From NCBI GenBank assembly GCA_965153355.1, contig OZ231126.1, positions 49,662,001 through 49,726,000 on the forward strand: DNA of 64,000 nucleotides, written 5' to 3'. Positions within the stretch are counted from its first letter, which is position 1. Each line of letters begins with the position of its first letter. The position numbers and the translations under genes were made by a program. The DNA comes from Flaccisagitta enflata. Lineage: Eukaryota. Under the pieces are notes generated by a model. It made no database searches. It was given only the letters and a program-made list of their open reading frames with translations, and had not been told where the DNA came from. Shown here one piece after another: positions 24,922 to 41,125 of this stretch.

Positions 24922-27834
24922 TTTTTTCATCATTTTTTTCTTTTCCATCGTCCTCTTCTTTTTCGTCTCATGCATTTCTCATGTTTTATGTGCCATTGGT
25001 CGTTACTCGTTAGTAGTTTGGTCTGTATGTATCGGAAATTTCCGCTTCATTGAGGCGCGATAAACATTATTGGTATTCGTTTCTCGCTTTTTCCCGCCTT
25101 CTTCCCCCGTCGTCTTTTTTTGCTCCCTTCATTCATGGAAGGGGAAAAACAAGAAAAATTAGTAAAAAGAATAAGAAAAGAAAAAAAGAAATGGGTGGGG
25201 AGGAAAAGAAAAGGAAATTAAATATAAAAAACTCAGTACTGCGTATTTCCATGCTGCGTCCTCGCATCACTATCAAGCAGATATCAGATATCAGGCGTTT
25301 GTGAGTTGGCTAATGACTTACGCCCAAGCAAGATATATGACAATGTGCTTTATTCACCGCAACTAACTGGTAACTAAGCTTTGTTTTTGATAAAGAATTA
25401 CTATCTGATAGAACATTCATTTTGGGCGCAACCCATATCCTTCAAAATTATAAGACCTTAAGTCAATCAAGGGGAACCTCCATAAAAACGGATACCTTAA
25501 GATGGTCAATCAACCAACATTACAAGACACGTAAAAAGATAAGACGGAAAACCACTAATGTCTTATGCAATGAAATTGTGGAAAGCCTACTTCCTGTTAG
25601 GCCAGTGAGATGAAATTTCGACCGAAATCTTCTGAAATATTTGGGCTACTTCAGTTGAAATTTGTTCACTAAAAGTATGCCTTTTTCACTCTTCCATTAT
25701 GTGGTTTTCCGCCTAATTTTTTCCACATGTGTTATCCTTGTTATCCATGTTTTACCGTTTTTGAGATTTTGGGCAATTCTCTGACTGCGAAACAAATGTC
25801 ACGGACCAACAAACGTACTGGTTGACTACCAAAGCCTCCATACGGAAAGAGAGTGTGAGTCGACATCTGAATAAAATAATTTCCTAGAGGAGCGACTGTT
25901 AGGAGGAGGAAGACTGCCTTCATAGGAAAGGAGGGGAATTTAAGATGCATGAAAAAATAAAAGGGAGGAAAATCAAATAATTTCAAGGCCGCCTAGACAT
26001 GGGTGCGTCTTGTGTGGATATGTGCGGGGTGGGGGCAAGAAGGAAGGGCGTAGGGTCTCGTTGGGTTATGAGGATCTCATGAAAAGCATAAACACAAACT
26101 CTCGATACGTTTACAATTTTGCAAATGCACTCGGATACAGAAACGCTGAGACAGAAATGGATGGATGATCAACTGATCATGAAGGAATGACCAACTCTTT
26201 AGAAGGGACGATTGACTCACTTGTGACTAGAGATCAACTTAAATGTCCCTCGGTTGGTTTTCACACCTTAGGCAGATGATTATATCACATAATATACGCC
26301 AATCTAACTACCTACCTTTCCCCTTGGTGATAAAGGGGTGACCAAGAAAGGGGCCTTAGGGAACATGGATGAGCTTGTAAGGAGATCGTGCTGGCGCCAC
26401 CATTTTTCACACTCCCTGCATGGGACCAACAAAAGCGCGGCGGCCACTCGGTTTGTTTAGGAGCACTCGAGCGTGCTGCAACGCCTGCACACCAAGACGC
26501 CAATTTCGTGGGGGCTATTCACCAGTCAGTGACTACTACAAATCAAAAGTCACAAAAGTATAGAGACACAACTAGCTCAATCTCTCTCTCTCTCTCTCTC
26601 TCTCTCAAATGAAGCTGGCGGGTCAAAGGTGCAACTGACCAACAATTTGAGGGGGAAAAACGTCCTTGCGTGGCGCGCGTCAAAAACAAAAACCCACCGC
26701 TTTCAATTTTTTTATTCCGGTTTCCCCCTCCAAATTGGATTATTATCGACAAATTTATGCCATCGAATTTCCAATTGTCATTAATTTGAGGTTTAAGCCA
26801 ATCATTTGAAAGCTTGTCACATTATTTCTTTCGTCGGAATAATGAACACATAATCAAAAATGAAATTAAGATAAAAAAAATCACCGTGTTGAAAGAAGTT
26901 AAATTTGAACCCCGCAATAACGGATGCCAAGGGAGTATGTGTGTTTTAGCAGCACCATTGGCCCAGCAGCCCCCTTGACTCTTAAAGAGCCAGAAATAGG
27001 AGATAGTCACAGCAGCCCCTTAGCAGCCCCCTATGTTTTTGTTAAGTAGGGAAAGGATCAGCAGCCCCTTAGACCTCTCAGCAGCCCCCCCCTTAAAAAC
27101 ACTGGGATATACTCAGCAGCCCCCCAGCAGCCCCTATTCTCAACATTGCAGTGAAGTCTAGCAGCCCTATCTTACAACTGTGGGGATAGGACCAGCAGCC
27201 CCCCAGCAGCCCCCTAATTCAAATACTGGGATAGACTCAGCAGCCCCCCGGCAGCCTTTATACTCCTCATTGCAGTTAAGACTAGCAGCACTATCTTACA
27301 ACTCTGGGGATAGGACCAGCAGCCCCCCAGCAGCCCCCAACTAGAAACATTGGGATAGACACAGCAGCCCCCCAGCAGCCCCCACTATCAGTATATGTGT
27401 TGATTTTAAGTCTAGCAGCCCCTTCTACAACTCTGGGGATAGGACCAGCAGCCCCCCAGCAGCTACCCACTACAAATACGGGGATAGACTCAGCAGCCCC
27501 CCAGCAGCCCCTAGACTCAACATTGCAGTGAAGTCTAGCAGCCCTATCTTACAACTGTGGGGATAGGACCAGCAGCCCCCCAGCAGCCCCCCACTACAAA
27601 TACGGGGATAGACTCAGCAGCCCCCCAGCAGCCCCTAGACTCAACATTGCAGTGAAGTCTAGCAGCCCTATCTTACAACTGTGGGGATAGGACCAGCAGC
27701 CCCCCAGCAGCCCCCCAATTCAAATACTGGGATAGACTCAGCAGCCCCCCGGCAGCCTTTATACTCCTCATTGCAGTTAAGACTAGCAGCACTATCTTAC
27801 AACTCTGGGGATAGGACCAGCAGCCCCCCAGCAG

Positions 27835-28182
27835 TACGTCCCGTGAAGCGCCCCAAACTTTGACTATGGCTCTCACCAATCTTACCACAGTTGAGGCTTG
27901 GTAAAAAAACATTCCATGCAAAATTTTGGGCCTCTGAGATAGCAGGAACCTTCGTCAGGGTGAGGTTGAAGTTTGTATTGAATTAACATTGGAATCAATA
28001 TTTCTTTTATGCAAATTTTGTCTCTGCCATAGGTTTCTATGGAAACTTCATGGTCACCCTGACAAAGGTTCCTGCTGTTCCAGAGGCCTGAAATTTTGCA
28101 TGGGATGTTTTTTTACCAAACCTCAACCATGGTAAGATTGGTGAGAGTCAGCGTCGAAGTTTGGGGCGGTTCATGGGACGTA
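27835..28182. mobile_element. 348-bp palindromic MITE, TACGT...ACGTA termini, 8-bp TSD
   Basis: CCCAGCAG at 27827-27834 and 28183-28190; ~130-bp imperfect TIRs. Confidence 0.93.
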
Positions 28183-28493
28183 CCCAGCAGCCTCCAACTA
28201 GAAACATTGGGATAGACACAGCAGCCCCCCAGCAGCCCCCATTATCAGTATGTGTGTTGATTTTAAGTCTAGCAGCCCCTTCTACAACTTTGGGGATAGG
28301 ACCAGCAGCCCCCCAGCAGCCCCCCACTACAAATACGGGGATAGACTCAGCAGCCCCCCAGCAGCCCCTAGACTCAACATTGCAGTGAAGTCTAGCAGCC
28401 CTATCTTACAACTGTGGGGATAGGAACAGCAGCCCCCCAGCAGCCCCCCACTTAAAAATACGGGGATAGACTCAGCAGCCCCCCAGCAGCCCC

Positions 28494-28875
28494 TGTCAGG
28501 TTTAAAGTCCCCGCTGACTGTATCTGGTCAACCCTAGTTTCAGTATCGCCTAAGTATCTATTCAAATGAGTCGAAACGCGCGTAACTTTACGGACTTTAG
28601 CTTTATTCCGAATTGGTTACACTGTAAAGGAAAAGAAAGTATCATGAGAAACTGACAAATAGTGACAGACTGACATACTGACTGACAATTCATTACCGCA
28701 ATAACATACCGAGGTATTCGACGTAATATTCCAACAGATGTCAAATATCAATTTGGTTCAAGAAGATGATTCTTACGACTATCAAGCTAAGAAGGATTCA
28801 GAAGTCTAAAAGCATTATCTATCAATCTGTCTATCATCCGCGTAGTCTCTGTGATTCGACGATGCGTAACTAACA
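28494..28875 (-). repeat. 3' LTR
   Basis: Direct repeat of 38145-38526; minus-strand AATAAA at 28602-28607. Confidence 0.98.
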
Positions 28876-29653
28876 CCACCACCAATCAATGGTGGATTGA
28901 TTTCACTCCAACGTATCGTCCTTCCAGGTTCCGGTTCCAGCTCTGTTGTCTTGCTGCGGCTCCGGCGTGCAGCAGCAGTCGAAAGGCGGCAACTCCGTTG
29001 ATCAGTCGGTACTTCCGCGAAATTTGTTTCCAGATCCATTTTGACGTTCTTATCCAACTCCAGCATTCGTATCCAACTCCAGCATTCGTATCCAACTCCA
29101 GCATTCAGACAGACGGCTAGTTTGAATGTTTTCCATTCAAAGGGCTTGCTAATCATGTTCAGTAATTGATCCCATTACTTAAGATAAATAATGATCCGTG
29201 GACTAGCTTATGAATGATAAACCATTCATCTCATCATATATCTCTTTGTTTGTGTTTGAATACAATTGATTAAGAGAACAAAACGCTTTTTCTATTTAAG
29301 CATAAAGTAGAAGGGAGGCAGTGAAGGAGGCGAAGGCAAAAAGAGCAAGAATAAGGGAGAATCAATCTGTCGCCGAATTATCCTAGGCTCACAGATATAT
29401 AAAAAAATTGATCAAGGAAGTTTGGGAAAATGGGTCCAGCAAAGGGGGAAGGTTTCATTTTCGGGTTCAGACATAAATGGGGGTTTGTTAAAAATGAAAT
29501 AATTTCGCGTGTAGCAGCGGGGCATCTGAATTTCTCCCCGGCAGTAGCGATCAAAGTTGCGAGGTGTGATGCAGATGTAGCCCAGGTCAATCCCTGGGCG
29601 TAGTTTGGGGAGCGGACTGTGATAGCCTGAGGGAGATAAGGGAAATTTCAAGC

Positions 29654-30663
29654 TCAGATTAAACTGTTATTTTGCCAATTTCTACGCTTGATTCGATCGC
29701 GCTCTCTTTTCATTTCTTCAAGACGGCGCTTCATTCCTCGAACAGAGTTTTCCTGTTCCATAACAGCAGCTTCTAGTGTGCAAATCGCCCTTTTGAGGTA
29801 ATGATCCGCATTACCGTTATGAATGTAGCCTGAGACGATATTTCCCGAGTCTTGGGAGAAGTCGAGGATCGCGGCTTCCGAAGGTCGCGCGCGAGGTTGA
29901 CCCTCCGCTGGGACGACGGTCACGTCGGCAACATCGGCGGGATGCTCGGTCGTGAGATCGATGGACTCGACCGGTGGGAGGTTATCAGACTGTAAAGAGG
30001 AGGGAAATAATGATGAGTCTGAGGTACTTTTGCTAGGTAAATGTAAAGGCGTTTGTTTCCCGTAGAAATTGATATTAGTGATTTTAGATTTTACCTCCGT
30101 CGAAGGTGGTGTGGGTTCGGCGGTGGTGCATGAGGGCGACGCTGTGAAGCTTCTCAGCAGTCGCACGTCGGCTGCGTGTATTTGTCTGTTGTGGGGAAGG
30201 TGATAATGGATAAGGATACCTTATCATCATGTTGTTATATGCAAGTGTCTTGTCAAACGCTTAACATTTGGTTGCACTTACTATCTCCAAATTTTACGAG
30301 TCCAACGTTGTAGTCGTAGTCCTCTATGTCCTTCAGATCGTCGTCGTCGCTAGCGGCAGCAGCGGTGACAGCAGCAGCGGCGTCTTCCGTCGCAGCGGCG
30401 TCTTCCGTCGCAGCGGCAGAAGCAGCGGCGCTTCGGTTGTCGTCGTCGTCTGTGACGGCGCAGTCGCTGTCGATCAATTCCTCTTCGTCGTCGTCGGGTC
30501 CCGTGACGAGGACGTCCGGAATCGAATCTTTCTTCTGAGGGGAATAGTGGTTAAGTTGAGGATAATGGTTTTTCCTATGGGGTTGTGAGTGAATCGTCAT
30601 TTAGAGAGAAAGAAGAATTAATGGTTCCATTAATTCATTTACCTCAACGATACGCCTATCCAT
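29654..30663 (-). CDS. Putative spliced accessory gene in the LTR element; exons 30643-30663, 30282-30534, 30095-30171, 29654-29989 (228 aa; acidic N-terminal half, coiled-coil-like C-terminus)
   Basis: Three GT-AG introns of 108, 110 and 105 nt with compatible phases (0,1,0) join three ORF-track fragments into one frame. Confidence 0.7.
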
Positions 30664-31000
30664 GATGAGAGAGGAGGAGGAGGCGATGATGCGTGTGAGG
30701 AGGTGAGGAAGAGGAGGAGGAGGGGGCGCGGGATTGTTGTTGTTATTGTCACTGTTGATTGTTTGTTTTTGTTTTTTGATGAGAGTATAGCTAAACACTC
30801 TGTTGAGCAAAGGAAATCAATGAGAGGAAGTTTTAGCAAAGTTTGAAATGTAATTTAATGACAGAGGATAATTTTAGCGGAGGAAATCAAAGAAGGAAAG
30901 TTTTAATGAGGATGAGATTTCTAAAAGAGGCGATTTGAAACTTAAATGTAATTTGGCGACATAGGATGATATTTGAGAGATACTAATGATTTCCATTAGT

Positions 31001-32374
31001 TTATTCATCCAGTTCCAAAGGGACGATTTTACACAGATGTCTTTCGAGTTTTGTCCCATTTGGTAAGTCAATTTCCACTCGGCGAACATGATTCTTATCG
31101 GCGGTAAGAATCTTACTTATCCTCCCAATTCGCCAGAGCTCGCGCGGCTGAAGCTCATCAACTAGGATGACTAATTGTCCCAGGCGCGGATTTTTTGTGG
31201 AGGACGTCCACTTTGTCCGTCGTTGCAATTCAATCACATATTCTTGTTGCCAACGTTGCCAGAATTCTTCGATGACTTCGCGGACGCGGCGCCATGAAGC
31301 CCTCAAGTGATCACCTGAGGATAATGGAGGAAGGATATTGACAGAGGTAGGTGTGATCATGTACGGGTACAAGAAGTTAGCGGGAGAAAGAGTTTGAGGG
31401 TCTGAGGGATCAGAAGACATAGGGGTGATAGGTCTGCGATTCAAAATCCCCATGACCTCTGACAAGATAGTTTCAAAACTGTCAAGGTCAAGTTCGCTTT
31501 TTTGCTCATAAATGATAGCTGCAATGTGTTTTTTAGCGCTTTGTACACAGCGCTCCCAAACTCCACCCGCGTGAGGGGTGTGGGGTGGACCAAAATGCCA
31601 AGTCAGTCCCTTGACAGCTAGTTCTTTGTTTGTCTGTTCGTTGTCCCAGAGTGCAACACTTTCAGCCAATTCTCGGGATGCCCATTTGAAGTTTGAACCA
31701 CAATCACACCAAAGTGATTCAAGGCCCGGGAATTGATTGTGAAACCGAATCAGAGCATTTATGAAAGATTCCGTTGACATGTCTTTCAAACTGATCAGAC
31801 TAATGGCCCTTGTTGAAAAACAAGTAAACAATAACACATAGCGTTTCTTTAACCCTCTGCCTGTGTACTTTAGGGAAAAGGGACCAAAAACGTCGCAACC
31901 TGTTTCAGCAAAGGGCTGGGTGAGTTCTAACCTTTCTGCTGGGAGATCGGCCTCCCGCTGGTGTTGTGGTTGTTTGTCTCTCCTTTGGCAGTAGGTGCAA
32001 GTGTCCACAACGCGTTTGATGGCCGATTTTCCGCCAAAGATAAAGAACCTTTGGAGTAATCCGTGGAAGGTCTGTAAACGAGAGGAATGAGCGTTAGATT
32101 CATGTTCAAAACGGATAAGAGATTTAACAATCTCTTCTTTGCATGGGTTGGGAAGAATCAAAGAGAATTTTTGGTCAAAGGAGTAAGTGGTGGAATTTCC
32201 CAGCCTTCCACCCGTCCTTAAACAGAGGTTTTCATCGAGAAATGGGCTCAAATTTCTCAGGTGAGAATCTTTCCTTCTCAATTCAAATTGGGCGTTGGGT
32301 GTATTGACCCCCAACTTGACCAAAGACTCAATTTCAGGTTGGAAATGTTTGTACTGAATCGCACGTACTATCAT
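31001..32374 (-). CDS. BEL integrase region (HHCC, DDE core, C-terminal domain), frameshifted from the rest of pol
   Basis: HESNAH..CTYC; DVFGP; CDCGSNF; GGVWER; FWQRWQQEY. Confidence 0.95.
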   Translation of the reverse strand: MIVRAIQYKHFQPEIESLVKLGVNTPNAQFELRRKDSHLRNLSPFLDENLCLRTGGRLGNSTTYSFDQKFSLILPNPCKEEIVKSLIRFEHESNAHSSRLQTFHGLLQRFFIFGGKSAIKRVVDTCTYCQRRDKQPQHQREADLPAERLELTQPFAETGCDVFGPFSLKYTGRGLKKRYVLLFTCFSTRAISLISLKDMSTESFINALIRFHNQFPGLESLWCDCGSNFKWASRELAESVALWDNEQTNKELAVKGLTWHFGPPHTPHAGGVWERCVQSAKKHIAAIIYEQKSELDLDSFETILSEVMGILNRRPITPMSSDPSDPQTLSPANFLYPYMITPTSVNILPPLSSGDHLRASWRRVREVIEEFWQRWQQEYVIELQRRTKWTSSTKNPRLGQLVILVDELQPRELWRIGRISKILTADKNHVRRVEIDLPNGTKLERHLCKIVPLELDE

Positions 32375-35330
32375 TGTCTAGAAAACTAGGTTTCAATTTC
32401 CTCTCCTTCTTATCTTTCACATTAAAAATGCGTTTGGCACTGTCATTGTCTAGAAAACTAGGTTTCAATTTCCTCTCCTTCTTATCTTTCACATTAAAAA
32501 TGCGTTTGGCACTGAGAAACAAAAAACGCGAAAAGATCGCTACTCTTCTCACCTTTTTGTCCCAATGTTCAATTTTCTTTGTCACTTCCAACGACCAGTG
32601 AGGAGGAGGAGGAGAAGGAGGAGGAGGAATTGAAGGGATTTCCCTTTCCGCTTCATCTACTCTGATTGTGAGTAGTTCCAGTGGAGAAAATTCTGCTTCG
32701 CGGCTTGCTTCCATCGCGGCAGGATTGTTCGCTTTTTGCGGAGTGGGCGTGATGGGCCAATTTTCCATTGGCTCTCGCAAATAGTCCGGCCCTGAATGAA
32801 ATGGAGTCCATCTAGGGTCACCAGCGGTCAATCCACGAGAGCACCAATCCGCGGGATTGTGCTCTCCTGGAATGTGTTTCCATTCCAACGTGTCCGTCAG
32901 AGTCCAGATGTCTTTGAGTCTGAAATGTTCATAGGTTTTCTTTCGTCCGTCATAGTCATTGAGCCAGTTGATGACGCACATTGAATCTGTCATCAGAATC
33001 ATCTTTGAGTAGTTTTCCCCAGAGAGTCTTACTAATTCATCTCGTTTTCTGGCTAAAAGACGGGCAGCTTCAAGTTCAATTTTTGGGATAGAATCTTTAT
33101 GATCTTCCTGATTTTTCAAAATTCGTTTGTGCATGTTCAGGGGGACAACATGCGACTTGCTCAGTAAAAAGGCTACATGGGCGGGCTTATCCCCCCCACC
33201 TTTTACTGATTTACGGACATAGATAATACACCCATATCCTACTAAACTCGCATCACTGAAGCCCACAAGCCAGTTTTCAGCGTCTTCATAACCCAGAGCT
33301 GAGGTCCATCTGGATATTCTCAAATTTCTCAAGTTTTGCAAAGAGATCCGCCAGTCATTAACCTCTTTGCGCATTTCTGTTGGTAATTCTTCATCGTACT
33401 TCAAACCCATATCATTGACAATTTGGTACAAAATTTTCCCTTGTAATGTACAAGGGGCGTAAGCTCCATAAGGATCGAAATTACTGGCAGTTAAACGCAA
33501 AAAATCTCTTCTAGTCAAAACTGGCACATCGGCTTTAGCCGAGACTCTGACATAGAGTGAATCAGTTTTAGGGTCATACCCAGTTCCCAATATCTTACTT
33601 GTTGGGGTGGTTTCACTCGTCGGTTTCATCATATTGTTCACGTCCTGTTTGAAATATTCGGGAGTATGGAATATTTCACTGATTTTTTCTACGTTTCCTT
33701 CGCCGTCGAATTCTTCAAAATCGACTTCCAAGGGCTCGGCGAAGTTCTCATCCTCCTCCGGCTCTGTCACGTGATTTTCCACGTCATTTTTCTGAGGAGA
33801 AGAATCAGTTTCATCGGTTAAAATTTCAGGGTAGGGTGACTCCCACTTGGTGAGTTCAAACCCACCAAGCTTACAAGCCATGGTCAAGTCTTTCCGCATT
33901 TGTCTGGCTTCCTCAATGGAGTCTAGACTGTCAATATAATCGTCCATGTAAAATTGCTCTAGAATGGCGCGCACAATATCGCTCACAAACAGGTCAGCTA
34001 CCTCTTTGGCGTGATGTTGGAGCGTGAAGTTCGATACTGGAGGGCTGCTGGAAGCTCCAAAAATGTGCACAAGATGTTCGGCCACGACGATGTTTTCCAT
34101 CGTCTCACTTTCAAACCACAGAAACCTGAATGCAGAAATGTCAAGGGGGTGGATTAAAATTTGGTGAAAGAATCCTTTCACGTCCGCGCTGAGTGGATAT
34201 CTTTTCCTCCGCCAGCGCCACAGTACCCCAAGTAAGTTGTTAAGTAGATCCGGGCCACTTAACAATTCACCATTCAAGAAAATGCCTTTGTTCTTGGAGG
34301 CGGCGTCTAGACAAATTCTATATTTATTTGGCTTATCAGCCCGCCAAACTACGTGTATAGGTAAGTATACGCATGGGCTTCCTTCTGGTGCTTTCAGGTC
34401 AGTAATGATTCGTGCATGTCCAAGTGAAAGAGTTTCATTCATTTGGGCAAAGACACCAGCCTTTCTAACGGGATCCTTCTCAAATTTGACTTTTTCTTTC
34501 AATAATCTATTCTTAGCATTTGTAAAAGTGTCAACGGAGTTCAACCTTTTGGCTGCAGCTTCCCTCCCATTTTTCCATGGGACGCCGCATACCCAATGGC
34601 CTGATTCTAAATCAAAATATAGTGTATCCTTCATTTGTTTCAAAGAATAGTAATCATTTACTGAAAGATGGGTTTGTTCAGGGGAAAAGGCTTCATGACC
34701 TTTCATGATAAAATCATGTCTTAGCATGTAATCAACTTCCTTCTGTAGTGATTTTTCTTCTGTTTCAATCATAGCAAATCCCGTAGAAAGACTAGTGGTT
34801 TTATCCAAGGTTTCTAATGGGGGTCCAATGAGACACCAAGAGAACATAGTCTTGATTGCGAGAGGTTTAGATTCACTTTCAAATCTAAATTCATTTGTCG
34901 CCCAAGTATAGGCATATCGTGATCCCAATATCACCCCAATGGTTTTATTAGGCAATTCTTCAATGGTTATATCTGAAAGGTAATCTAACCCTTTCACATC
35001 ACTTTGACCTAAAGGTCTTTCGTTTTCAGCGGAGAGAATATTTCCCACCAGAGCTTTATTGACATCGATAGAAAAAGAGCCATCTAAAGGTTCAACTGTG
35101 AATTTAGCAAATTCAGTGTCAGGGTTATAAATTTTAGAGTTGAAAGTTGACAAGTTGCATGGTCTGGATTCAATTTCAGCATCAATTTCATATGCCACTT
35201 CATCTAAAATAGCTTCACAAGTGGCTCCTGAATCTAAAAGGGCGTAAGTAGTAGTGGAGCGATCCCCCCACTTAACTCGCACTGGCACTACAGGGCGAAT
35301 CGCACCACGTTCTACAAACGCCGCCGCTAG
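32334..35330 (-). CDS. pol: BEL pol: aspartic protease, reverse transcriptase, RNase H
   Basis: ALLDSGAT; RICLDAA, ADVKGFFHQI, FGASSSP, FYMDD; GFSDAS..GYG, IPKIELEAA, MTDS, NPADWCSRG. The frame opens right after the gag stop. Confidence 0.97.
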   Translation of the reverse strand, partial: LAAAFVERGAIRPVVPVRVKWGDRSTTTYALLDSGATCEAILDEVAYEIDAEIESRPCNLSTFNSKIYNPDTEFAKFTVEPLDGSFSIDVNKALVGNILSAENERPLGQSDVKGLDYLSDITIEELPNKTIGVILGSRYAYTWATNEFRFESESKPLAIKTMFSWCLIGPPLETLDKTTSLSTGFAMIETEEKSLQKEVDYMLRHDFIMKGHEAFSPEQTHLSVNDYYSLKQMKDTLYFDLESGHWVCGVPWKNGREAAAKRLNSVDTFTNAKNRLLKEKVKFEKDPVRKAGVFAQMNETLSLGHARIITDLKAPEGSPCVYLPIHVVWRADKPNKYRICLDAASKNKGIFLNGELLSGPDLLNNLLGVLWRWRRKRYPLSADVKGFFHQILIHPLDISAFRFLWFESETMENIVVAEHLVHIFGASSSPPVSNFTLQHHAKEVADLFVSDIVRAILEQFYMDDYIDSLDSIEEARQMRKDLTMACKLGGFELTKWESPYPEILTDETDSSPQKNDVENHVTEPEEDENFAEPLEVDFEEFDGEGNVEKISEIFHTPEYFKQDVNNMMKPTSETTPTSKILGTGYDPKTDSLYVRVSAKADVPVLTRRDFLRLTASNFDPYGAYAPCTLQGKILYQIVNDMGLKYDEELPTEMRKEVNDWRISLQNLRNLRISRWTSALGYEDAENWLVGFSDASLVGYGCIIYVRKSVKGGGDKPAHVAFLLSKSHVVPLNMHKRILKNQEDHKDSIPKIELEAARLLARKRDELVRLSGENYSKMILMTDSMCVINWLNDYDGRKKTYEHFRLKDIWTLTDTLEWKHIPGEHNPADWCSRGLTAGDPRWTPFHSGPDYLREPMENWPITPTPQKANNPAAMEASREAEFSPLELLTIRVDEAEREIPSIPPPPSPPPPHWSLEVTKKIEHWDKKVRRVAIFSRFLFLSAKRIFNVKDKKERKLKPSFLDNDSAKRIFNVKDKKERKLKPSFLDNDSTCDSVQTFPT

Positions 35331-37952
35331 TCATTTCTTTTCTACCGAAGGCTTTCCTTCGGGTCTTTCTGCACCATGCAACAGGTCATGGTGGCGTTTG
35401 CCACAAACTGAGCAAGTTTGATCTGAGGGACATGAGGAGGCCATGTGGCCCTTGCATAAGCATCTGTAGCAATAACCCTTGCTAAAACATAGGATAAACT
35501 TTTTGTCGCTGTCAATAAAGCTCTTACACTGGTCCAAACAGTGTTGCTCTTTGCCGTTACATACCTGGCATGAAGGAGGATCAGAAGGATTTTTTCCTTC
35601 TGGTTTTCCCGGTCGTTTGTCATTTCTTGGTCCGGTTTTTTGTTTCATGTGCTGTCGCTTCGGCGCGGCCGCAGCAGCAGCAGCAGCTGCAACGACCTCC
35701 GTGTCGATTTCTTCGTCGCATTCTTCAGAGTCGTCTTCGTCGGCCTCTGGATTCACGGCCGCGATACGGGCCGTCGTTTTCTTGTGTCCATTTCTGTGAA
35801 AGGACTGGGATCCATTCCCCCCAACGGATTTCCCATTGGGAGTCTGTCCGCCCGCGGTCTTAGCAGCCGCGGCCGATTGGTCGGAAATTTCCGCCTTCCT
35901 CTCCGCAATCCTGTATTGGGTTTTTAAGAAGGCAAGGAAATCTTTAAATGTTATGTCAGGAATATCCTGACCATCTCTCAAAAAACGATCTTCGTGTTTT
36001 TGGCTTTCTACTGCCCAACGCAAAATCAGAGAGGGCAGTTTCTTATTCAAGACTGTATTATATGTGTCTGAGGTGTTGAACGTGGCTTCCCGGTTTGTTT
36101 CAATCGATCTGAGGTGGGCATTTTGCAGGTGGAAAATGAAAGTCTGTAAGGCTTTATGATCTTTGGCATTGATCTGAGGCCCGGTCAACGTGTCATCTAA
36201 CATTTTTCTAGCTGTGTCCTTTCTACGTCCATATTCAGCCTTTAATTGTGTCAGGGTTCTGTCTATGTTTTCTTGTGCATTTGTTCCATTGCTATAGTTT
36301 TTAACAATGATGCCGGCGGGCCCACCAAACCAATGTTTAAGTTCCAAGGCTATCATTGTAGGGTTTGACCCCTCAATCTGTGTCACTTGGTGGAATTCTT
36401 GTACATGGGATTCAAAATCGATTCTCTTGTCTAAACCCGTGAAAACCTTGTCCTTCGGGGGACGGTTTTGAGACATGAGTTGGTGAGCAAGCAGGGCTTG
36501 TTGGCTAACTGCTACTTTATCGGTCGAGGTTTGGGCAGTGTGAACACTGCTCTTTGGTGGTTCGGGTTGGTGTATTGGTGGGTCTTTAGGTTGGTGGTAG
36601 GAGGGGTAGGTGTAACTATGATCTGACCAGGTCACATTTGTGGACGTGGAAGTTGGTTTCACTACATATGGGGTCCCGGTCGGTACGTAGATTGTGTTTC
36701 CTATGGTGATGTATGCTGGGGCTTCAATTGTTCGGGGCGGAAGGTGTGGACCATCCTCATGACTTATCTGAAAGGTTCTGTAGGCTGGGTTTTGAGGTCT
36801 TGGGGGTGACGCGGTTGTCCCTGAGAGTTTCATTAGGTTCTCCCTAATGTTAGAGGTCTGATCTGAGGTTGGGGTCGGGTTCCTTTTCTGGTTTGAATTT
36901 GAGGTCATATCTGAGGTCGTATTTTCTGGCAGATTCGCCCCCAGGGTCTGATCCCCTGGGGAGGAAGTGGTCTTGGTCGCTACCCCGGGGGGTGGTGGGA
37001 TAGAATCTACGAGTGGGTTATCAGCCACAATGTTGTCCGAGTTACTTTGCTTACCTACGGTAGAGTCCAAGGGCGACGGAGTAGGAGTGGTGTTCAGAGG
37101 CGTTTCCTCCGTCAAATTCGCGTTGTTGTTGTTCCAAGTCTCAACCTTGGAAGTGACTGAATCGGCCTTGACCGACTTTGATTCGATCGATTCTATTTCT
37201 TCGCTTATTTCGGCGAGGCCCTCTCTTCTCCTGGCCGCGTTTTTCAAGGCTCTCCTTTTAAATTTTTCCTCTTGGGTTTGGAATCTGATTTCCAATTCGT
37301 CCTTTTTTGCTTCAAACTCGCGTTCCATCTCCAATCTCATGGCTTCCAACTGTCTCTCCTTCTCGAGTCTCTCGGCCTCGAGTTTCCTTTCTAAGTTGCG
37401 CTTCGCCGCGTCGGATTTTTTCTTGTCTAGAGATAAATCTCCTTCATCTTCCTGGAAGCGTTCTTCTATGGCGTTCTGACGTGCGACCATTTCGCAACGG
37501 GACGTAGAAGATAGAGATTGGGATTTTCGGCTCGAGGCACGGGGGTTGTCCCCCCGGCGTTCGGATGGCGTTTTGGCGGCGCCGGTGGTGCTTCCATCAT
37601 GCGCCGGCGGCGGATCATTTACGTTCGCGGCGATGTCAAGCGCGGGGAGGTCGGTGAACGTGGGTTTCGTCGCTAAAATATTTTCTATCTCGGTGATTCT
37701 ATCAGTGACGCTATCGGCGCATTGTTGCGAGACGGCGTCGGTCGGTCTAAATTGTCGGAGCGAATTTAAAACGCCTTCTAGGGCGTCGCGTCGTTCATTC
37801 GATACTCGTTTCAAAGCGACGTCTTCGTTGTCTACGGTTGCGGCATACGCCGCTTTGAATTCTGTTATCAGTTTGTTCGCGTTTCTTACGTATTTGCGTG
37901 CGGCTCTATCGTCCACGACAGGATCGGCGAACAGATTTAAGCGTTGATCCAT
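35331..37952 (-). CDS. gag: BEL Gag (873 aa) with three C-terminal Cys/His knuckles
   Basis: CQVC..H..C, CYRC..H..C, CSVC..HH..H; N-terminal coiled-coil-like stretch. Confidence 0.95.
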   Translation of the reverse strand: MDQRLNLFADPVVDDRAARKYVRNANKLITEFKAAYAATVDNEDVALKRVSNERRDALEGVLNSLRQFRPTDAVSQQCADSVTDRITEIENILATKPTFTDLPALDIAANVNDPPPAHDGSTTGAAKTPSERRGDNPRASSRKSQSLSSTSRCEMVARQNAIEERFQEDEGDLSLDKKKSDAAKRNLERKLEAERLEKERQLEAMRLEMEREFEAKKDELEIRFQTQEEKFKRRALKNAARRREGLAEISEEIESIESKSVKADSVTSKVETWNNNNANLTEETPLNTTPTPSPLDSTVGKQSNSDNIVADNPLVDSIPPPPGVATKTTSSPGDQTLGANLPENTTSDMTSNSNQKRNPTPTSDQTSNIRENLMKLSGTTASPPRPQNPAYRTFQISHEDGPHLPPRTIEAPAYITIGNTIYVPTGTPYVVKPTSTSTNVTWSDHSYTYPSYHQPKDPPIHQPEPPKSSVHTAQTSTDKVAVSQQALLAHQLMSQNRPPKDKVFTGLDKRIDFESHVQEFHQVTQIEGSNPTMIALELKHWFGGPAGIIVKNYSNGTNAQENIDRTLTQLKAEYGRRKDTARKMLDDTLTGPQINAKDHKALQTFIFHLQNAHLRSIETNREATFNTSDTYNTVLNKKLPSLILRWAVESQKHEDRFLRDGQDIPDITFKDFLAFLKTQYRIAERKAEISDQSAAAAKTAGGQTPNGKSVGGNGSQSFHRNGHKKTTARIAAVNPEADEDDSEECDEEIDTEVVAAAAAAAAAPKRQHMKQKTGPRNDKRPGKPEGKNPSDPPSCQVCNGKEQHCLDQCKSFIDSDKKFILCFSKGYCYRCLCKGHMASSCPSDQTCSVCGKRHHDLLHGAERPEGKPSVEKK

Positions 37953-38144
37953 ATTTGTTTACCTCTTATTTTCTTTCGTTGATAGCAAGTCGATGAGAAT
38001 CTTCTTCTTCGTAGTTCTGTTTTCCGGAGGGTCTTTTTCGATGGAGTTGACACAAAGGCGATCAGAAACAAAAGGGCAATCGTGTTCGGGTCCTTCCAAG
38101 ACTTTCCCTTGGAAGAGGTTCTCACGCGAGAATAACTCGTGTAA

Positions 38145-38526
38145 TGTCAGGTTTAAAGTCCCCGCTGACTGTATCTGGTCAACCCTAGTTTCAGTATCGC
38201 CTAAGTATCTATTCAAATGAGTCGAAACGCGCGTAACTTTACGGACTTTAGCTTTATTCCGAATTGGTTACACTGTAAAGGAAAAGAAAGTATCATGAGA
38301 AACTGACAAATAGTGACAGACTGACATACTGACTGACAATTCATTACCGCAATAACATACCGAGGTATTCGACGTAATATTCCAACAGATGTCAAATATC
38401 AATTTGGTTCAAGAAGATGATTCTTACGACTATCAAGCTAAGAAGGATTCAGAAGTCTAAAAGCATTATCTATCAATCTGTCTATCATCCGCGTAGTCTC
38501 TGTGATTCGACGATGCGTAACTAACA
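38145..38526 (-). repeat. 5' LTR
   Basis: Direct repeat of 28494-28875. Confidence 0.98.
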
Positions 38527-41125
38527 GCCCCTAGACTCAACATTGCAGTAAAGTCTAGCAGCCCTATCTTACAACTGTAGGGATAGGACCAGCAGCCCCC
38601 CAGCAGCCCCCCAATTCAAATACTGGGATAGACTCAGCAGCCCCCCGGCAGCCTTTATACTCCTCATTGCAGTTAAGACTAGCAGCACTATCTTACAACT
38701 CTGGGGATAGGACCAGCAGCCCCCCAGCAGCCCCCAACTAGAAACATTGGGATAGACACAGCAGCCCCCCAGCAGCCCCCATTATCAGTATGTGTGTTGA
38801 TTTTAAGTCTAGCAGCCCCTTCTACAACTCTGGGGATAGGACCAGCAGCCCCCCAGCAGCCCCCCACTACAAATACGGGGATAGACTCAGCAGCCCCCCA
38901 GCAGCCCCTAGACTCAACATTGCAGTGAAGTCTAGCAGCCCTATCTTACAACTGTGGGGATAGGACCAGCAGCCCCCCAGCAGCCCCCCACTACAAATAC
39001 GGGGATAGACTCAGCAGCCCCCCAGCAGCCCCTAGACTCAACATTGCAGTGAAGTCTAGCAGCCCTATCTTACAACTGTGGGGATAGGACCAGCAGCCCC
39101 CCAGCAGCCCCCCAATTCAAATACTGGGATAGACTCAGCAGCCCCCCGGCAGCCTTTATACTCCTCATTGCAGTTAAGACTAGCAGCACTATCTTACAAC
39201 TCTGGGGATAGGACCAGCAGCCCCCCAGCAGCCCCCAACTAGAAACATTGGGATAGACACAGCAGCCCCCCAGCAGCCCCCATTATCAGTATGTGTGTTG
39301 ATTTTAAGTCTAGCAGCCCCTTCTACAACTCTGGGGATAGGACCAGCAGCCCCCCAGCAGCCCCCCACTACAAATACGGGGATAGACTCAGCAGCCCCCC
39401 AGCAGCCCCTAGACTCAACATTGCAGTGAAGTCTAGCAGCCCTATCTTACAACTGTGGGGATAGGACCAGCAGCCCCCCAGCAGCCCCCACTACAAATAC
39501 GGGGATAGACTCAGCAGCCCCCCAGCAGCCCCTAGACTCAACATTGCAGTGAAGTCTAGCAGCCCTATCTTACAACTGTGGGGATAGGACCAGCAGCCCC
39601 CCAGCAGCCCCCCACTACAAATACGGGGATAGACTCAGCAGCCCCCCAGCAGCCCCTAGACTCAACATTGCAGTGAAGTCTAGCAGCCCTATCTTACAAC
39701 TGTGGGGATAGGACCAGCAGCCCCCCAGCAGCCCCCCAATTCAAATACTGGGATAGACTCAGCAGCCCCCCGGCAGCCTTTATACTCCTCATTGCAGTTA
39801 AGACTAGCAGCACTATCTTACAACTCTGGGGATAGGACCAGCAGCCCCCCAGCAGCCCCCAACTAGAAACATTGGGATAGACACAGCAGCCCCCCAGCAG
39901 CCCCCATTATCAGTATGTGTGTTGATTTTAAGTCTAGCAGCCCCTTCTACAACTCTGGGGATAGGACCAGCAGCCCCCCAGCAGCCCCCCACTACAAATA
40001 CAGGGATAGACTCAGCAGCCCCCCAGCAGCCCCTAGACTCAACATTGCAGTGAAGTCTAGCAGCCCTATCTTACAACTGTGGGGATAGGACCAGCAGCCC
40101 CCCAGCAGCCCCCCAATTCAAATACTGGGATAGACTCAGCAGCCCCCCGGCAGCCTTTATACTCCTCATTGCAGTTAAGACTAGCAGCACTATCTTACAA
40201 CTCTGGGGATAGGACCAGCAGCCCCCCAGCAGCCCCCAACTAGAAACATTGGGATAGACACAGCAGCCCCCCAGCAGCCCCCATTATCAGTATGTGTGTT
40301 GATTTTAAGTCTAGCAGCCCCTTCTACAACTCTGGGGATAGGACCAGCAGCCCCCCAGCAGCCCCCCACTACAAATACGGGGATAGACTCAGCAGCCCCC
40401 CAGCAGCCCCTAGACTCAACATTGCAGTGAAGTCTAGCAGCCCTATCTTACAACTGTGGGGATAGGACCAGCAGCCCCCCAGCAGCCCCCCAATTCAAAT
40501 ACTGGGATAGACTCCTCATTACGCTGATTGCATCGCCGACTTATGTCAAATCACGTCATTGCGACCAAGTTTTAATGTACCTTTGCAAAAATGTGACCAA
40601 ATGAGCCTATGCGCAACATTCCAAACATTCGGGAACCTTTTTTAGGGCGCGGTCTAAGATAAGAGGGTTGAATGTGAGTGAGGTACTGTATAGTAAAGAT
40701 GATTATTGCGTAGCATACACAGTCCAACCGTCTTAAAGGACGTATCCGGACCAGTAGAAAAAATATAAAATTCCGATAAATGCTGTTTTCTATTCCTGAT
40801 GACTTCCTGAGTCGCTGTATAAAATTTCAGCCCTCTAGCTCTACTAGATCGCTGTTTTTAGTGCCCCAAAGAAACCCGTGTTTTGTGGACGATCAGGGAA
40901 AAAAAGAAGACGAAATAAAAAGTTGCTCCGGGGTTCGAATTCCAGCAATAAGAATTTGAAAAGTTTCAAGTCAGCAATGCTAACCACTTGACCAAACACG
41001 TTCGCTGCACCAGATGGATATTTTGGTTGTATGTAATCTCCGGAGGCCAACGAGTTGGAGCAAAAAATGAGGAAGACTATTTTTTACGCATGCTTTGGCG
41101 TGAATATTGGTTGCAACTCAATCTT

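Follow-up and report, generated by a model that had tools for sequence, protein, structure and literature searches.

The window analysed here, 64,000 nt of Flaccisagitta enflata contig OZ231126.1 (positions 49,662,001 to 49,726,000), carries on its minus strand a 10,033-bp long terminal repeat (LTR) retrotransposon of BEL/Pao (Belpaoviridae) architecture, and the 2.1-kb interval between its integrase gene and its 3' LTR holds an accessory gene that is readable only if spliced. The best single model for the expression of this gene, which we favour tentatively and with less than even confidence, is a subgenomic mRNA in which the element's leader, cut at a splice donor immediately ahead of gag, is joined across the whole of gag, pol and integrase to the accessory exons.

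The accessory gene is laid out below as four exons (a slash in a motif marks the exon boundary). We infer the arrangement of exons A, B and C from reading frames, splice motifs and conservation, and exon D is the conserved part.

30643-30799, minus strand: putative exon A, with 136 nt of untranslated sequence, ATG 30663, 7 codons (MDRRIVE) and donor GAG/GTAAAT
30282-30534, minus strand: putative exon B, acidic, with acceptor CCCCTCAG/ and donor ATA/GTAAGT
30095-30185, minus strand: putative exon C, with strong acceptor CACAACAG/ and donor GAG/GTAAAA
29654-29989, minus strand: exon D, 111 codons and a stop

The introns between these exons would measure 108, about 96 and 105 nt, the last of which, before exon D, is in frame. 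Aspartate and glutamate make up 27 of the 84 residues of exon B. When read unspliced, ATG 30663 is followed by a stop after 20 codons, and the conserved frame (30220-29657, listed with a GTG start) contains no ATG before residue 154, so that an upstream exon must supply the start of the protein.

Comparison of exon D with related proteins suggests that its upstream boundary is a genuine splice site. Of 94 candidates from a word-indexed search of ENA proteins, two proved to be relatives (72% and 88% identical), and an exhaustive phmmer search of 1,835,955,588 representatives found P0001 and P0002 only, together with a single 24-residue stretch at chance level. P0001 ends like the window, and P0002 has a tail without counterpart in the window. 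The acceptor marks the start of the similarity, and immediately before it both sequences have residues that translate a pyrimidine tract and CAG. Likewise, one cluster holds three close copies that agree at all 108 residues of exon D and differ upstream of the acceptor, where one copy has two substitutions and the first 11 residues of another are entirely different. This is the pattern of a constrained exon beside an unconstrained intron, and on these grounds the downstream gene looks real. For the exon B frame, ENA holds only near-identical unspliced copies (P0005 and P0008, from 1 of 1,303 candidates), which have the same end. Protein searches with the exon D, leader and exon B frames returned no accessory protein in spliced form. 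A scan of JGI metagenomes with the exon D alignment gave 280 pattern matches and no relatives, a scan of the same resource for the 23-nt leader end gave none, and IMG/VR scans gave 3 pattern matches for integrase and 73 for exon D, none of them relatives.

The original prediction described the message as an env-style subgenomic mRNA for the accessory gene. An extra gene and a splicing scheme that fits it are what we recover, but the env part of the analogy does not hold for the product: exons A-D contain no hydrophobic or transmembrane segment (the highest 19-residue hydropathy is 0.42), no Pfam family, env families included, matches the accessory frames, and a product without a transmembrane segment is therefore not env. 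A structure model of exon D, built from 3 sequences, reached a mean predicted local distance difference test (pLDDT) value of 71.7 and comprises a disordered start, a β-hairpin and a 53-residue helix, the helix being the confident part. The end of this helix is basic, with 11 lysines and arginines in the last 35 residues. A Foldseek search of the PDB with exon D found no match at E <= 0.001 (best E = 1.8), and a homodimer prediction for exon D residues 36-111 scored 0.27 against a mark of 0.32. The accessory protein is an orphan; because it combines an acidic exon with a long helix that has a basic end, our guess is that it may be a nuclear protein that handles RNA or other nucleic acid, or one with a regulatory role.

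The proposed 5' end of the message depends on two features of the leader.

37958-37965, minus strand: candidate major splice donor GAG/GTAAAC, exon end at 37963, GT at 37962-37961, 10 nt before the gag ATG
37962-38267, minus strand: leader frame, 102 codons from stop to stop without ATG, in the gag frame and ending in a TAA inside the donor motif

The letters and position of the donor are as the original prediction gave them, AAGAG/GTAAAC with the exon ending at 37963 and the gag ATG at 37952-37950. At the window's own rates, AG/GTRA would occur by chance in the 192-nt leader with P ~0.05 and AG/GTAA with P ~0.03, and the donor is the sole feature of the proposed junction that stands out from chance. 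The 8-mer GAGGTAAA, which spans it, occurs 4 times on both strands of the window against 2.44 expected. Three of the four copies lie on the sense strand of the element (37965-37958, 30645-30638 and 30097-30090), where one is the leader donor and the other two close the putative exons A and C. As a separate observation, AGGTAA is rarer than expected in the window as a whole (18 against 33.05), and 100 of 100 shuffles had at least 18.

The leader frame was also described correctly, as 85 codons without AUG at 38216-37959, within a stop-to-stop span that we measure at 102 codons; this span opens just past the TAA at 38270-38268 and closes with the TAA within the donor. There is no ATG between 38295 and that of gag. 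Openings of this length are unusual, being matched by 1.5% of the 4,888 stop-to-stop intervals found elsewhere in the window and surviving in 45 of 20,000 shuffled leaders. At the donor, the phase of the frame fits both exon A (via 30799) and the exon C/D frame (via the strong acceptor at 30186). Neither relatives of the leader frame nor fusions of it within longer database proteins were found among 94 candidates, and its codon usage does not distinguish it from noise, as 30% of the null windows without stops score as high. The leader RNA fold is ordinary (z = 0.35), and the window contains no Rfam match and, by tRNA search, no tRNA gene.

At the other side of the proposed junction, two acceptor regions are of interest.

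30799-30817, minus strand: candidate acceptor ...TTTGCTCAACAG/AG, last intron base 30800
29381-29628, minus strand: further putative acceptor, with open frames of 70 and 82 codons after it

The acceptor TTTCCTTTGCTCAACAG/ is confirmed, with its AG at 30801-30800 and the exon starting at 30799, 201 nt past the integrase stop. The earlier claims that joining 37963 to 30799 is in phase with the leader frame and reads into ATG 30663 (MDRRIVE), and that such a phase match has a 1-in-3 chance, are both borne out. ATG 30663 is the only ATG past this acceptor and has A at -3 and G at +4. The downstream acceptor that had been suggested to open an alternative last exon is present as well, with AG at 29628-29627 and the expected 70-codon frame, to which we add the 82-codon frame.

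Under the model that we favour, transcription would begin in the 5' LTR, and a fraction of the full-length RNA would be spliced from GAG/GTAAAC, 10 nt before the gag AUG, to an acceptor in the post-integrase gap, where 30800/30799 is the best-placed candidate. The use of the leader donor and its pairing with 30800 are what we infer from these features. The junction would excise the 7,163 nt of gag-pol-int, making the AUG at 30663 the first in the message, and the introns of 108, about 96 and 105 nt would then be removed to reach the conserved last exon. We rank this leader splice first because the 3' gene needs a supplied 5' end, because the leader donor is built like those of the gene itself, and because, with no AUG from 38295 to gag, the junction would make the well-placed ATG 30663 the first. 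A further reason is that the LTR, and not the gap, has a TCAGTY cluster, which lies upstream of AATAAA; TCAGTY is the arthropod initiator consensus.

38301-38336, minus strand: TCAGTY cluster, possible initiator or transcription start region, three motifs in 36 nt
38253-38258, minus strand: AATAAA poly(A) signal in the LTR, with its 3' LTR copy at 28602-28607

Each of the two LTRs has three TCAGTY matches on the sense strand within 36 nt, and the stretch between integrase and ATG 30663 has none on that strand. The ranking also follows precedent, because 3' genes are expressed in this way elsewhere: simple retroviruses make env from a spliced mRNA (PMC10309623), and the ORF3s of LTR elements are expressed from spliced messages, according to one author's statement (PMC5408684).

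A number of observations, in the DNA and in RNA records alike, weigh against this leader-to-accessory mRNA. The acceptor at 30800 does not exceed chance: acceptor-like sites occur at 1.7 per kb, which gives 0.58 expected in the 338-nt gap and P(>=1) = 0.44, and 12 comparable sites lie within gag-pol-int. The clustering of GAGGTAAA on the sense strand has a Poisson P of ~0.001 for a motif that was picked after looking, and is to be read as post hoc. Among the accessory exons, joining B to C at the strongest sites is out of phase and would yield a 101-residue product that never reaches exon D; routes from B to C that stay in frame need a weak donor at 30278, a weak acceptor at 30220, or exon skipping. 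Products made by exon skipping would have 118 residues (A-D) or 197 residues (A-B'-D), and the larger models have 234 and about 244. The JGI and IMG/VR scans yielded no DNA from relatives in which the donor and acceptor sites could be compared.

These points bear on an alternative in which the accessory gene is transcribed from an internal promoter within the 338-nt gap, the leader GT is a chance or cryptic site, and only the accessory introns are spliced. The donor could arise by accident with a frequency of 3-5%, the acceptor is at chance level, no RNA or protein links the leader with the accessory exons, and the gap contains repeated AT-rich motifs. Internal promoters of retroelements occur in foamy virus and in the Oikopleura Tor elements. 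Against such a promoter, the sense strand of the gap lacks TCAGTY where the LTR has three, a weak argument in that it does not cover promoters of other types, and the 8-mer of the leader donor is common to two internal donors. On balance, we regard transcription from the gap as unlikely.

The RNA material consists of a poly(A) run (X4) and marine metatranscriptomes X1-X3, the latter as assembled contigs only. In 12,162,974 sampled X4 reads (~6% of the run), a single read mapped, at a low-complexity spot, and was not counted, since the same low-complexity places attract 18-26-nt pieces from other runs; with no genuine read, the element is therefore silent in the X4 poly(A) sample. The gag, pol and integrase genes are represented in X1 by five contigs of 155-225 nt, of which four are at least 99% alike and one is 95-99% alike. 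The element family is present in marine RNA libraries, and DNA carry-over is possible. The contigs are confined to gag-pol-int, and no RNA record reaches the leader donor or the accessory exons; the junction sites 37963 and 30799 are covered by none of the 10 contig records from X1-X3, nor by the X4 read.

One X2 contig (record 7; 181 nt, depth 3) aligns colinearly to the sense strand in three pieces, the outer two short at 26 and 33 nt, and skips two stretches of the element.

34126-35564, minus strand: skipped stretch 1, 1,439 nt, CAG/GTATGT to TTCAG/G, joining 35565 to 34125
33792-34001, minus strand: skipped stretch 2, 210 nt, GAG/GTAGCT to CTCAG/A, joining 34002 to 33791, in frame in pol

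This single record, although a modest observation, is direct evidence for splicing in RNA of this family or in a processed copy of it. The joints, within 33759-35588, delete the protease and the YMDD region together with the knuckles of the nucleocapsid, and translation from the gag ATG across the first of them ends at a stop after 4 codons. The splice joints seen in RNA lie only inside gag-pol and not at the leader, and therefore at least some spliced RNAs keep gag sequence. Moreover, the acceptor at 34126, which is seen in RNA, failed our acceptor filter, and the filter therefore discriminates poorly.

The contig raises the alternative that the accessory protein is made from a multiply spliced mRNA that starts with gag-derived exons and uses donors within gag or pol, in the manner of the CERV gene of Cer1. 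Both of its joints are canonical GT..AG in good context, gag itself contains a consensus donor, TAG/GTAAGC, at 37055, and exons 1-3 of CERV are common to gag (PMC10309623). However, the record is a single one at depth 3 with outer pieces of 26 and 33 nt, the stop that follows the first joint after 4 codons and the loss of YMDD through the second are more in keeping with cryptic splicing or with a defective, processed copy, and the contig stops short of the accessory exons. A message with gag-derived exons thus strikes us as distinctly improbable.

A different reading dispenses with a cis donor altogether and has a host spliced leader trans-spliced onto the accessory acceptors of a long transcript. 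Spliced-leader trans-splicing is known from copepods, tunicates and nematodes. There are good acceptors before exons A, B, C and D, the nearest clusters to pol are mostly arthropod, and the element is found in marine metatranscriptomes; trans-splicing, however, leaves the donor before gag unexplained, and we consider it the least probable of the explanations weighed here.

It may also be that there is no working subgenomic mRNA at all, the 3' region being decaying or captured sequence in which the matches of motif and phase are coincidental. The pol and integrase frames of this copy differ, exons B and C are out of phase at their strong sites, 12.2 million sampled poly(A) reads include no genuine one, and the protein lacks any known family or fold match. 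In contrast, exon D is 72-88% identical in diverged relatives and invariant in three close copies in which the intron-like part upstream varies, the LTRs are identical and the insertion young, and the family is found in RNA libraries at identities of at least 99%. We give little credence to this explanation.

The leader-to-accessory mRNA could also form part of a more elaborate system, a 'complex' belpaovirus that would produce several spliced mRNAs, a Rev- or CERV-like nuclear RNA-handling protein and, in addition, leader-fused isoforms started at a non-AUG codon. This extended form of the favoured model seems very unlikely as a complete description.

The favoured arrangement resembles the env mRNA of simple retroviruses and insect errantiviruses in having a leader donor before the gag AUG and an acceptor after integrase (here as motifs only), and in that the 3' gene would gain the first AUG once gag-pol is removed. 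Unlike in an env mRNA, the 3' gene is not env and is itself split by introns. A closer parallel is CERV of the Ty3/gypsy element Cer1 of C. elegans, an orphan accessory protein that is expressed from a five-exon spliced mRNA and required for the export of unspliced genomic RNA (PMC10309623). The CERV mRNA is similar in having multiple exons in different frames, which here are putative, and both proteins have helical, zipper-like and basic elements (PMC10309623). The two differ in that our element is BEL/Pao and its product has at most about 244 residues against the 517 of CERV, and in that CERV has exons shared with gag, whereas the accessory gene bears no such sign. A phmmer search found no sequence relation to CERV, in a library without names in which the inclusion of CERV is unconfirmed.

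Within BEL/Pao, elements with a third gene are known, among them roo, Tas and mosquito elements, and the third gene is env-like (PMC8742986, PMC13524379 and PMC3118150). Our element shares with them the BEL/Pao backbone and an extra gene after pol, but theirs encode env-like fusion glycoproteins and the gene described here would encode a small soluble protein, acidic and basic in its parts, with introns. Splicing of the BEL/Pao third gene is not described in the portions of these three sources that were available, and the words 'splice' and 'spliced' are absent from the available main texts of the latter two. No spliced non-env accessory gene was found for BEL/Pao in the literature, subscription journals being outside coverage. 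The leader frame invites comparison with sORF1 and sORF2 of the Drosophila MDG1 group, small accessory open reading frames (ORFs) located upstream of gag (bioRxiv 10.1101/2025.03.14.642691). The likeness is an open frame of about 100 codons between LTR and gag; the difference is that each MDG1 frame begins with a start codon of its own and is translated from RNA that is not spliced, in contrast to a leader frame without ATG and with no relatives among 94 candidates.

Spliced regulatory genes are a hallmark that divides complex retroviruses from simple retroelements, and Cer1 CERV is a worked example outside Retroviridae, in Ty3/gypsy (PMC10309623). If introns are kept in the DNA copy of a BEL/Pao element, then unspliced RNA must be exported and packaged alongside the spliced mRNA, a difficulty that is overcome elsewhere by Rev, constitutive transport elements and CERV. 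Should both the leader splice and the accessory protein prove true, this strategy would extend to the third metazoan LTR lineage and provide a small, tractable orphan protein for study; should they not, the element would be a young BEL/Pao insertion of the usual kind, odd only in its 3' region.

The remaining parts of the element are listed below.

38145-38526, minus strand: 5' LTR, 382 nt, starting with TG and ending with CA
28494-28875, minus strand: 3' LTR, 382 nt, starting with TG and ending with CA
38527-38531 (upstream copy) and 28489-28493 (downstream copy): target-site duplication GGGGC, 5 bp
35331-37952, minus strand: gag, 873 codons, ATG at 37952-37950
32334-35330, minus strand: pol, with protease (DSG), reverse transcriptase (YMDD) and Pao-type domain
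31001-32374, minus strand: integrase, stop TAA at 31003-31001, in a frame that differs from that of pol in this copy

The two LTRs are 100% identical over their 382 nt, and the insertion is therefore young. The profile of Belpaoviridae by the International Committee on Taxonomy of Viruses (ICTV) gives LTR lengths of 0.2-1.2 kb, a target-site duplication and an overall size of 4.2-10 kb (PMC8742986), and the element lies at the upper limit of this size range. Belpaoviridae are also characterised by capsid and nucleocapsid domains in gag and by a primer-binding site that pairs with tRNA-Arg or tRNA-Gly. Gag has two CCHC-like knuckles, at residues 795-809 and 828-841, and a weak match to DUF1759 in Pfam (21.2 bits, cut-off 25.4). 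Pol matches Peptidase_A17 with E = 7.9e-26 (91.4 bits, cut-off 22.3) and, below threshold, RVT_1 (24.5 bits, cut-off 29.6), with DSG at residue 33 and YMDD at residue 461; integrase matches Integrase_H2C2 (34.1 bits) and DUF5641 (79 bits). The domain order of protease, reverse transcriptase and integrase is that of a Pao-type pol, and the protein-atlas clusters closest to pol carry the same domain families and are mostly arthropod.

Gag and pol share one frame, split by a single TGA that is followed by CTAG (35325-35336, minus strand). UGA-CUAG is a strong context for stop-codon read-through, and pol may be made by read-through and not by frameshifting. Read-through is absent from what the ICTV profile lists for Belpaoviridae (PMC8742986). 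Pol has 24 repeated codons at its end, added by a 72-nt tandem duplication (2.1 copies, 98% alike; 32334-32514, minus strand), and the frame difference between pol and integrase sits just past this duplication. A 175-nt metatranscriptome contig has an indel relative to the window at 32379, and because of this indel and the difference in frame, this copy may be defective despite its identical LTRs. A mini-intron that would join the two frames (donor 32553, acceptor 32512, 41 nt) was considered and rejected, as it reads into a stop.

Within the element, the acceptor-like site of highest quality (12 of 13 pyrimidines followed by CAG) is found in the LTR, at 38273-38290 and 28622-28639 on the minus strand. 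AATAAA follows 15 nt downstream, and the 3' LTR copy of the site could act as a last-exon acceptor. An ATG-started frame of 113 codons (28815-29156, minus strand) begins in the 3' untranslated region, crosses into the 3' LTR and includes a 19-nt repeat of 3.2 copies at 29047-29106.

The insertion site is an array of a 124-nt satellite that continues beyond both ends of the element (27079-28494 and 38525-40514). This satellite, which also shows periods of 253 and 377 and is rich in CCAGCAGCCCC, is present in 6 copies on one side of the element and about 16 on the other, and long (GA)n, (GTT)n and (GGTC)n microsatellites flank the element. None of the 133 ORFs outside the element reaches a Pfam curated cut-off. 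The segment 52000-64000, whose open frames contain no Pfam family, has a G+C content of 0.53-0.55 and a positive GC skew of 0.22-0.27, against a G+C content of 0.37-0.42 in the remaining window. A 355-codon frame at 1438-2505 on the plus strand matches GIY-YIG weakly (E = 0.0012, 19.5 bits, cut-off 22.6) and could be what remains of a Penelope-like element.

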